Positions 51,657 to 52,485 of a stretch of DNA of 64,000 nucleotides are shown here, piece after piece. Each line of letters starts with the position of its first letter. The stretch's first letter is position 1. Source of the DNA: an uncultured Ignavibacteriota bacterium (GTDB taxonomy: Bacteria; Bacteroidota; Ignavibacteria; UBA10030; BY39); contig CAMTWO010000024.1 of assembly GCA_947085405.1 (NCBI GenBank), positions 579 through 64,578 on the forward strand, given 5' to 3'. The position numbers were made by a program, and so were the translations under genes. Under the pieces are notes generated by a model. The model saw only the letters and a program-made list of their open reading frames with translations, had not been told where the DNA came from and searched no databases.

Positions 51657-51743
51657 TCCCAAACTTGTGGTGAGCGAAGTCGAACCATCCTAATACGTCG
51701 TCCTCTGCTTTGTAATCTTCACGTCTTGCAACTGCGAAGCTTT
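51657..51743. repeat. Direct repeat copy A (~85 bp), a duplicate of the lptD 3' end
   Basis: tcccaaacttgtggtgagCGAAGtcgaaccatcctaatacgtcgtcctctgctttgtaatcttcacgtcttgcaactgcgaagcttt is identical to 52404-52485 except for a 5-nt insertion (cgaag). Confidence 0.8.
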
Positions 51744-52099
51744 TATTCTTCTCGTATACGAATTCTTGTTTCTTCCACAACCCAAAGCTTGCCGACAATT
51801 TCTTCTTTTATTAAAAGTTTGAGTAAGTTTTTGAAGACTTCTAATACATATAATTTATCGGATTTTATTAGTCTCAGAACAATAATTCCATTGTATTCTT
51901 TCGGGGGATAAGTTCTTATGTCAGAAAAATCTAAATCAAGGCTAACTAAAACCTTTTTCTCTTTTTTGCAAATATCAGCAATTGTTGAATCAGGTTTTCC
52001 GCTTAAATGTTCTTCATAAACTGTGCAAGCTTCCCAATTTTCGGATTTTAATAAATCAGCTAATTCGACAGGTAAATTTTCATCTAATTTGAAAATCAC
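51743..52099 (-). CDS. DUF5615 (Mut7-C/PIN-like) protein, toxin-like partner of DUF433
   Basis: MIFKLDENLPVELADLLKSENWEACTVYE...VLVSLDLDFSDIRTYPPKEYNGIIVLR. Confidence 0.7.
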   Translation of the reverse strand: MIFKLDENLPVELADLLKSENWEACTVYEEHLSGKPDSTIADICKKEKKVLVSLDLDFSDIRTYPPKEYNGIIVLRLIKSDKLYVLEVFKNLLKLLIKEEIVGKLWVVEETRIRIREE

Positions 52100-52101
52100 A
52101 G

Positions 52102-52335
52102 TTATGCGGAAATTTTTGTTATAATTATTCGTTCCTTAGCAATATCAGCAGCATATGCGAGTGCTGCCCTTATCCCCTCCATTGTTAATGAAGGATAACT
52201 TTTTAATAATTCTTCATTACTAACGCCAGCCGCAATGTTATCCAAAATTATAGAAACCATTATCCTTGTTCCTTTAATGCAGGCTTTACCATGACATACG
52301 TTTTGGTCAACCGAAATTTGATCGAGTAAATTCAT
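52102..52335 (-). CDS. DUF433 domain protein (antitoxin-like)
   Basis: [62 protein letters not shown]. Paralog of the 41020-41253 product. Confidence 0.75.
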
Positions 52336-52403
52336 ATTAATCCTTTAATTATTCACTTAAAATTTATTCATAATTAATTTAATAATCAATCATGCATTCC
52401 AAA

Positions 52404-52485
52404 TTCCCAAACTTGTGGTGAGTCGAACCATCCTAATACGTCGTCCTCTGCTTTGTAATCTTCACGTCTTGCAACTGCGAAGCTT
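52404..52485. repeat. Direct repeat copy B (82 bp), forming the genuine 3' end of lptD
   Basis: See copy A. This copy encodes the C-terminal ~17 codons of the LptD ORF. Confidence 0.8.

Follow-up and report, generated by a model that had tools for sequence, protein, structure and literature searches.

The lptD gene in the 64-kb stretch of DNA analysed here (64,000 nt; hereafter the window) is followed on the same strand by a two-gene cassette, framed by two near-identical copies of the lptD 3′-end (Table 1). The lptD open reading frame terminates inside the proximal copy (copy B), as an earlier note on this DNA had held in calling that copy the genuine coding end; the LptD C-terminus (..EIRVKASQLQDVKITKQRTTY) is kept in relatives down to 69% identity. 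Between the copies lie 657 nt, comprising an AT-rich leader, a DUF433 gene and a DUF5615 gene with no other open reading frame, and the note's description of a toxin–antitoxin (TA)-like pair as the sole content of this interval stands. Beyond the distal copy (copy A) come the 3′ remnant of a gene convergent with lptD, which in its intact form encodes 181 residues, and a Mut7-C gene.

Table 1. Features of the lptD 3′ region and the adjoining interval (positions in the window)
Feature	Position	Strand	Basis or content
Mut7-C gene	50952..51416	-	Pfam PF01927, E 7e-40; synteny
Remnant (3′) of 181-aa gene, convergent with lptD	51473..51652	+	Translations, BLAST; no Pfam match
Repeat copy A, 91 nt	51653..51743	-	Non-coding relic of lptD 3′ end and downstream region
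DUF5615 (COG4634, Mut7-C group PIN-like) toxin, 118 aa	51743..52099	-	Pfam PF18480, E 6.7e-20, profile positions 1–109 of 110
DUF433 (COG2442) antitoxin, 77 aa	52102..52335	-	Pfam PF04255, E 3.1e-24, profile positions 1–56 of 56
AT-rich cassette leader, 65 nt	52336..52400	-	Presumed TA promoter/operator
Repeat copy B, 86 nt	52401..52486	-	Functional lptD 3′ end and 32 nt beyond the stop
lptD, 828 aa, LptD_2	52433..54919	-	Pfam PF19838, E 5.4e-91; ends inside copy B

The two cassette genes are arranged antitoxin first on the same strand, with the antitoxin stop codon (52102–52104) separated from the GTG start codon of the toxin (52097–52099) by a 2-nt spacer. The toxin is full length and retains every family-invariant residue in an alignment with nine homologues, in which the acidic residues D6, E7, D37, D55 and D60 are invariant. 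Pairs of DUF433 (COG2442) with a PIN-like nuclease have been predicted to be TA systems (PMC2701414), antitoxin function of a DUF433-type protein has been demonstrated experimentally for VapB10 of the VapBC10 system of Synechocystis (PMC3834315), and both COG4634 and PIN_10 toxins have been assigned to the Mut7-C group of PIN-like nucleases (PMC5499597). By its domains, gene order and linkage the cassette is thus a predicted VapBC-type type II TA pair. It has the same two domains, the same antitoxin-first order and the 2-nt intergenic spacer in common with VapBC10 and with the DUF433/COG4634/PIN_10 pairs, but the window toxin is at most 59% identical to any toxin known from elsewhere. By analogy with such pairs, the cassette may act as an addiction or stress module, in which the antitoxin would bind the toxin and probably also its own leader. 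A full-text literature search returned nothing for DUF5615 or for TA cassettes with flanking direct repeats.

The GC content of the cassette (30.7%, compared with 39.4% for the window) falls below the first percentile for equally sized windows, which fits a foreign origin. A scan of the minus strand for the sigma-70 consensus found nothing above chance, Bacteroidota-type promoters being outside the coverage of the tool, and an Rfam search of positions 50800–53000 at a permissive threshold gave no match.

The core of the repeat is a perfect 66-nt match (51678–51743 and 52421–52486), beyond which the similarity continues over a 22-nt stretch (51653–51674 and 52401–52422) with 21 of 22 positions identical. 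Copy B contains the last 17 codons of lptD (KASQLQDVKITKQRTTY, 51 nt), the TAG stop codon and 32 nt downstream, whilst copy A abuts, and at its first base overlaps, the stop codon of the DUF5615 gene (51743–51745), and at its other end adjoins the ancestral downstream flank (..GGGATTTTTCAACGACTAAGTTCTCG..), which is the flank that follows the single copy in one cassette-free relative (L013). When up to three mismatches are allowed, the window contains only two copies of the repeat, A and B, with none expected from 100 dinucleotide-preserving shuffles. The near-identical direct repeat reported by the earlier note is hence real and was correctly located, each copy extending a few bases further than the note had it. 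The note had also explained the greater length of copy A by a 5-nt insertion. Copy A is indeed longer than copy B by five bases, but the A form (..GGTTCGAYTTCGCTCACC..) also occurs in the orthologous copy A of a filled relative (L001) and at the empty site of another relative (L017), so the five ‘extra’ bases of copy A represent sequence lost from copy B. Copy B is 5 nt short relative to copy A, and 26 nt short, a stable hairpin included, relative to copy B of L001.

The region immediately after the lptD stop codon occurs in two allelic types amongst the relatives. One carries a terminator-like hairpin (GCCCCGAAGGTTTTCGGGGC) directly after the stop codon, as in copy B of L001, and is also present in L013 and in L012, the hairpin of the latter being a comparable one. 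The other, which has TTCGC, is found in copy A of the window, in copy A of L001 and in L017. Comparison of window positions 52401–52432 with L001 10487–10550 reveals that the stable post-stop hairpin is missing from both window copies; these fold no better than shuffled sequence (z-scores of +1.1 and +2.3), and the hairpin is confined to copy B or the single copy of relatives. A terminator scan of the window detected nothing above chance between lptD and the TA pair. With no terminator-like hairpin left there, transcriptional read-through from lptD into the TA pair is possible in this genome. In L001 the hairpin allele is present in copy B and the hairpin-less allele in copy A, which hints that the two copies may derive from different strains, although other histories fit equally well.

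The relatives used for comparison are Ignavibacteria-type metagenome-assembled genomes recovered in a genome scan with LptD, together with members of the LptD cluster; a metagenome scan with the LptD C-terminus identified a single relative, at 53% identity, and no record matched the DUF5615 or LptD protein of the window, or the LptD cluster member P0126, exactly. Relatives with an empty site, which the earlier note had proposed to look for, exist: in both L013 and L017, lptD is followed by a single repeat copy and the flank that adjoins copy A in the window. In L013 the lptD stop codon is followed by GATGGTTCAACTCGCCCCGAAATCCTTCGGTCAAGCTCAC..TTTGGGGATTTGAGATTTTTCAACGGCTAAGTTCTCG, such that the single copy runs straight into the copy-A flank of the window; in L017 it is followed by GATGGTTCGATTTCGCTCACCACAAGTT.. 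and then by the Mut7-C intergenic region. The Mut7-C gene is the conserved downstream neighbour of lptD in the insertion-free genomes L002, L012 and L017, and comes directly after lptD in L012 and L002. In L006, L014 and L016 the 181-aa gene is located behind lptD without a TA pair; it is intact in these three and partly degraded in L013, and its remnant in the window marks the original sequence downstream of lptD. A proposal that L013 and L017 are reciprocal products of repeat-by-repeat recombination, based on the hairpin and distal markers, was dropped, there being too few informative sites.

The cassette of the window recurs in two relatives, L001 and L008, where copy B meets the leader at an identical junction (..GGAATGCATGATTGATTATTAAATT.. 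in all three). In both the cassette has decayed. In L001, 128 nt are gone from within the DUF433 gene, and the toxin breaks off after PPKEY, where it runs into a remnant of copy A (CGACTTCGCTCACCACAAGTTTGGGGATTT, L001 10916–10946) which carries the A-specific TTCGC. In L008, a 36-nt deletion takes the DUF433 stop codon and the toxin start codon, and the second repeat copy is only ~38 nt in length and lacks the lptD coding part; this short copy is explained most readily by the loss of copy-A sequence lying between two TGAAAGC motifs, and less probably by an independent right-hand join. Two further contigs of the L008 species (L018 and L019) terminate exactly in the repeat. The ends of contigs L010, L011 and L015 were likewise considered as breaks at the 85-mer, but this was rejected since they lie in an AT-rich 7-nt tandem repeat (GATTTTA / GAATTTA). 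This tandem repeat is situated right after the lptD stop codon, at the ends of those three contigs, in L006 (9289–9345) and in L014 (8488–8700); it is the point at which Logan contigs break off, and in L014 it coincides with a run of N.

A neighbour-joining tree built from 6.66 kb (upstream genes plus lptD), with L002 as the outgroup, has the topology ((((window, L001, (L016, L006 group)), L013), L018), (L017, L012)), with support of 96–100% at the main nodes. The distribution of the cassette on this tree is patchy: it is present in the window, L001 and the L008/L018 lineage, but L016, the L006 group and L013, whose branches fall between these, lack it. For a single origin, the cassette must consequently have been lost two or more times, or the region exchanged among lineages.

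The insertion is old and inherited, and predates the split of lineages which are now ~89–92% identical in DNA at this locus. Window and L008 are 91.7% identical in the cassette (618 nt), as against 91.8% in the terminal 720 nt of lptD and 88.9% over the 6.66-kb region. In the comparison of the window with L001, the cassette is 97.5% identical and the flank 95.5%. A shared junction, coupled with cassette divergence close to that of the adjacent lptD 3′-end, indicates that the insertion predates these lineages rather than being recent, and the presence of the A-specific TTCGC in both the window and the L001 copy-A remnant shows the duplication to be older than the lineage split. The argument of the earlier note, that near-identity of the repeat copies implies a recent event, is refuted by the same insertion being found, decayed, in L001 (~95% DNA identity) and L008 (~89–92%).

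The identity of the two window copies probably has another cause. The repeat begins with AAAGCT in both window copies but with AAAGCC in all eight other lineages, and because this window-specific derived base (C to T) is common to both copies, the copies have probably been homogenised by gene conversion, or else the repeat may have re-formed later within the same population; the argument depends mainly on this one site. Divergence between the window and L001 at third codon positions of lptD is 10.4%, at which an unconstrained 66-nt relic should hold a few changes, a consideration that is weak by itself as the local divergence is lower.

Turning to mobility, the 657-nt insert encodes no recombinase, its only open reading frames being those of the TA pair, and no integrase or recombinase is present among the listed or annotated neighbour genes on either side, which encode a ROK kinase, a RarA-like AAA ATPase, the Mut7-C protein, adenosine kinase and HutU (hutU), or belong to another TA pair. 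The cassette ends carry no terminal inverted repeats, and the duplication spans 86–91 bp versus the 2–15 bp expected for an insertion sequence, MITE or transposon; the window contains two repeat copies and one cassette in its 64 kb, rather than the multiple copies of a dispersed element. Neither an attC-like hairpin nor an inverted repeat of the integron type was detected at the cassette ends, and intI, attI and a cassette array were not found, conserved chromosomal genes flanking the cassette on both sides. The direct repeats at both ends, together with the single copy in the empty sites of L013 and L017, do have the form of attL and attR. Signs of repeated or recent integration were not seen, there being one junction in three lineages, co-divergence with the flank and at most 59% identity to toxins elsewhere: a search of 5.8 billion protein clusters gave, beyond this locus and lineage, no toxin relative more than 59% identical, and a search of viral contigs with the toxin gave no match. 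The locus is a scar without mobility genes and without evidence of present mobility.

Integrative elements which enter the 3′-end of a gene carry a replacement end for it, and their attL and attR direct repeats are tens of bases long. The cassette resembles these in its flanking direct repeat that includes the target 3′-end, in the target gene being left intact and in the single-copy empty site; it differs in having no integrase or excisionase, a cargo of only 657 nt, a single old origin, no other sites and a repeat whose length varies between lineages. The ‘minimal mobile elements’ of Neisseria are variable cassettes situated between conserved genes and exchanged by means of flanking homology, and are not known to duplicate gene ends. 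The lptD–Mut7-C interval is similar in that its cargo varies (nothing, the 181-aa gene, the TA pair, or the TA pair plus an island encoding Vsr and Dcm), but here the gene end is duplicated.

The island just mentioned is a 3.9-kb segment of L001 (10990–14900), located between copy A and the Mut7-C gene, which holds a 176-aa gene and genes for a Vsr endonuclease, a GHKL-ATPase protein and a Dcm methylase. An imperfect ~17-nt repeat (TTTTTNAACTAATAA(A)T) stands at either end of the island, which constitutes another insertion in the lptD–Mut7-C interval. Several further observations concern TA genes in this part of the chromosome. A second TA pair is present in the window at 49854–50434 on the minus strand, between the adenosine kinase gene and hutU, and consists of a PemK/MazF-like toxin (49854–50201) and a 78-aa upstream partner (50198–50434). 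It is intact only in the window; L008 has an internally deleted antitoxin and no toxin, L001 a remnant of ~30 nt, and L013 and L006 have nothing. This pair lacks a long flanking repeat, and its pattern is like that of the lptD cassette, i.e. old and decaying in relatives. A solo DUF433 open reading frame (window 41020–41253, plus strand; E 1e-24) shares 44% identity with the antitoxin of the cassette; the ~370 nt beyond it contain no same-strand open reading frame of at least 50 aa, and it may represent a TA pair with a decayed toxin. Finally, the toxin of the lptD cassette, itself a member of the Mut7-C group, is encoded only ~330 nt from the chromosomal Mut7-C gene. This is probably a coincidence; an origin of the toxin as a paralogue of that gene was rejected, since BLASTP shows no pairwise similarity between the two.

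The toxin homologue closest to that of the window outside this lineage (P0131, 59% identity) is encoded directly downstream of an LptD_2 gene (L020 820–4360). The LptD of L020 is only 32% identical to that of the window and its other neighbours differ; no flanking repeat was found at the lptD–TA locus of L020, and the second-best toxin homologue (L021) is not near lptD. On a rough estimate, the probability of such adjacency to lptD arising by chance is about one in a thousand.

We favour, with moderate confidence, an explanation in which a single recombination or repair accident, involving no dedicated recombinase, inserted the TA pair behind lptD with duplication of the target, the product having been inherited since. 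A TA module of foreign composition would have been inserted once, in an ancestor of several Ignavibacteria-type lineages, with duplication of ~90–115 bp of target comprising the last 17 lptD codons, the stop codon and the terminator region. Copy B would then complete the essential lptD gene, leaving copy A as a dead relic on the original downstream flank. Such a layout would be the outcome of one illegitimate join and one homologous exchange. Campbell-type integration of a fragment that had circularised, homology-facilitated illegitimate recombination and templated repair of a break are all candidate routes to it. That the same junction between copy B and the cassette occurs in all three filled genomes points to one event. 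Thereafter the cassette would have been inherited vertically with the chromosome, remaining intact in this genome and decaying in L001 and L008, probably by small deletions between short direct repeats. The cassette-free relatives would either never have acquired the TA pair or have shed it, a clean excision being possible through recombination of one flanking repeat with the other. Such excision would restore a site like that of L013; an active toxin would be expected to penalise the loss, and the toxin is already broken in L001 and L008.

Campbell-type (insertion–duplication) integration and homology-facilitated illegitimate recombination are seen in transformation, and are mechanisms of the laboratory or of population genetics. 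The locus resembles their products in its order (target, foreign DNA, the same target), with one junction a novel join at microhomology and the other continuous with homologous DNA; it differs from them in that the required donor (an lptD–TA arrangement without the repeat, in a close relative) was not found among the relatives, and in that they do not constitute an element family. The microhomology at the novel join is interrupted, the toxin end reading ..ATACGAG-AAGAAT-RA/AAGC (slash at the join) and lptD ..ATACGAG-TGA-AAGC, and, having been noticed post hoc, carries little weight. Several features count against this explanation. Besides the patchy distribution and the short second repeat of L008, the cassette ends on its right precisely at the toxin stop codon, a neater boundary than a random illegitimate join predicts, and the toxin homologue of L020 is also located behind lptD, hinting at a non-random association. 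The earlier note's interpretation is supported in so far as the TA pair has been inserted and the repeat duplicates its target, as the single copies of L013 and L017 show, whilst site-specific mobility is not supported and recency is refuted; the alternative which the note had offered, recombination-mediated capture, is closer to the data than site-specific integration.

A more dynamic reading, which we regard as unlikely, is that RecA-mediated recombination of the two repeat copies releases a circle of ~745 bp (one copy of the repeat together with the TA pair) which, having passed into a related cell, re-enters at its lptD 3′-end by a single crossover and recreates the structure. The duplicated gene end would thereby serve as an integration handle that needs no recombinase, and the addiction exerted by the TA pair would help to retain the cassette. 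Patchiness among close relatives despite identical junctions would be expected on this basis, as would empty sites with the appearance of clean single-copy restorations, hairpin and TTCGC post-stop alleles mixed among copies and empty sites, and the identity of the two window copies. The cassette divergence, however, tracks that of the adjacent lptD 3′-end, suggesting no recent transfer; in addition, 85 bp of homology allows only rare RecA events, a 745-bp circle cannot replicate, and the origin of the first copy is left unexplained.

The model of the earlier note, recent integration of a minimal mobile cassette by a site-specific recombinase acting in trans, with the repeat as attL/attR and a replacement lptD end brought in by the insert, accounts for the direct repeats flanking the insert and for the single-copy empty site. 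It would also account for two observations which sit less easily with an accident, namely the cassette boundary exactly at the toxin stop codon and the location of the nearest toxin homologue, in an unrelated genome, likewise behind lptD. We nonetheless judge it to be quite unlikely, and the claim of site-specific integration is not supported: the cassette encodes no recombinase and its neighbours are housekeeping genes or another TA pair; its ends lack inverted repeats and the repeats lack inverted-repeat or attC-like hairpin structure; the event is shared, with one junction, and is old; no second insertion site or close copy was found in the window, the protein clusters (toxins elsewhere being at most 59% identical) or the viral contigs; the L020 pair has no flanking repeat; and the length of the repeat differs, from ~90 nt in the window to ~38 nt in L008.

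An origin within the genome carries a similarly low probability in our view. Here, a repeat-free lptD–TA arrangement would have undergone unequal exchange at ATACGAG..TGAAAGC to give a tandem of [lptD end + TA], from which the second TA pair was deleted. The interrupted microhomology that the 3′-end of the toxin gene shares with codons −19 to −16 of lptD is consistent with such an exchange, and L020 provides a natural lptD–TA arrangement without the repeat. Two steps are needed, however, and in the second the deletion must be precise enough to recover the native flank; the L001 copies differ in their post-stop allele (hairpin in B, none in A), and no relative has two TA copies or a repeat-free lptD–TA arrangement.

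That a metagenome assembler merged strain variants into a false duplication is extremely improbable: although the source and all relatives are metagenome-assembled, and the repeat is the exact end point of Logan and MAG contigs of the L008 species (L018, L019), the junction between cassette and copy A, or its remnant, recurs in assemblies made independently in different studies (L001, L008), the repeat is shorter than the k of 141 indicated by the L001 contig name, and a genuine repeat would itself be expected to break contigs in short-k-mer assembly.

In terms of known biology, the two constituents of the locus are of familiar kinds, one being a TA module of the VapBC type and the other an insertion that duplicates its target. 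As a single old insertion, it provides a natural example of a TA module that has no mobility genes entering beside an essential gene without destroying it. The long duplication left by the event would later permit clean loss of the module, and is probably kept uniform by gene conversion. Near-identical flanking repeats do not date an insertion; here they look new, whilst the insertion is old. The lptD–Mut7-C interval may be regarded as a small hotspot in which cargo is gained and lost, with two TA pairs nearby, the 181-aa gene and the Vsr/Dcm island. A more far-reaching possibility, to which we attach little probability, is that a subfamily of DUF433/DUF5615 modules has a heritable affinity for the lptD 3′-end, with the copy of the gene end acting as a recombinase-free docking handle by which a circle of ~745 bp re-enters related genomes. 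If true, this would explain the 59%-identical homologue behind a 32%-identical LptD in L020; unless the association of the L020 type proves general, no new mechanism is opened by this locus.
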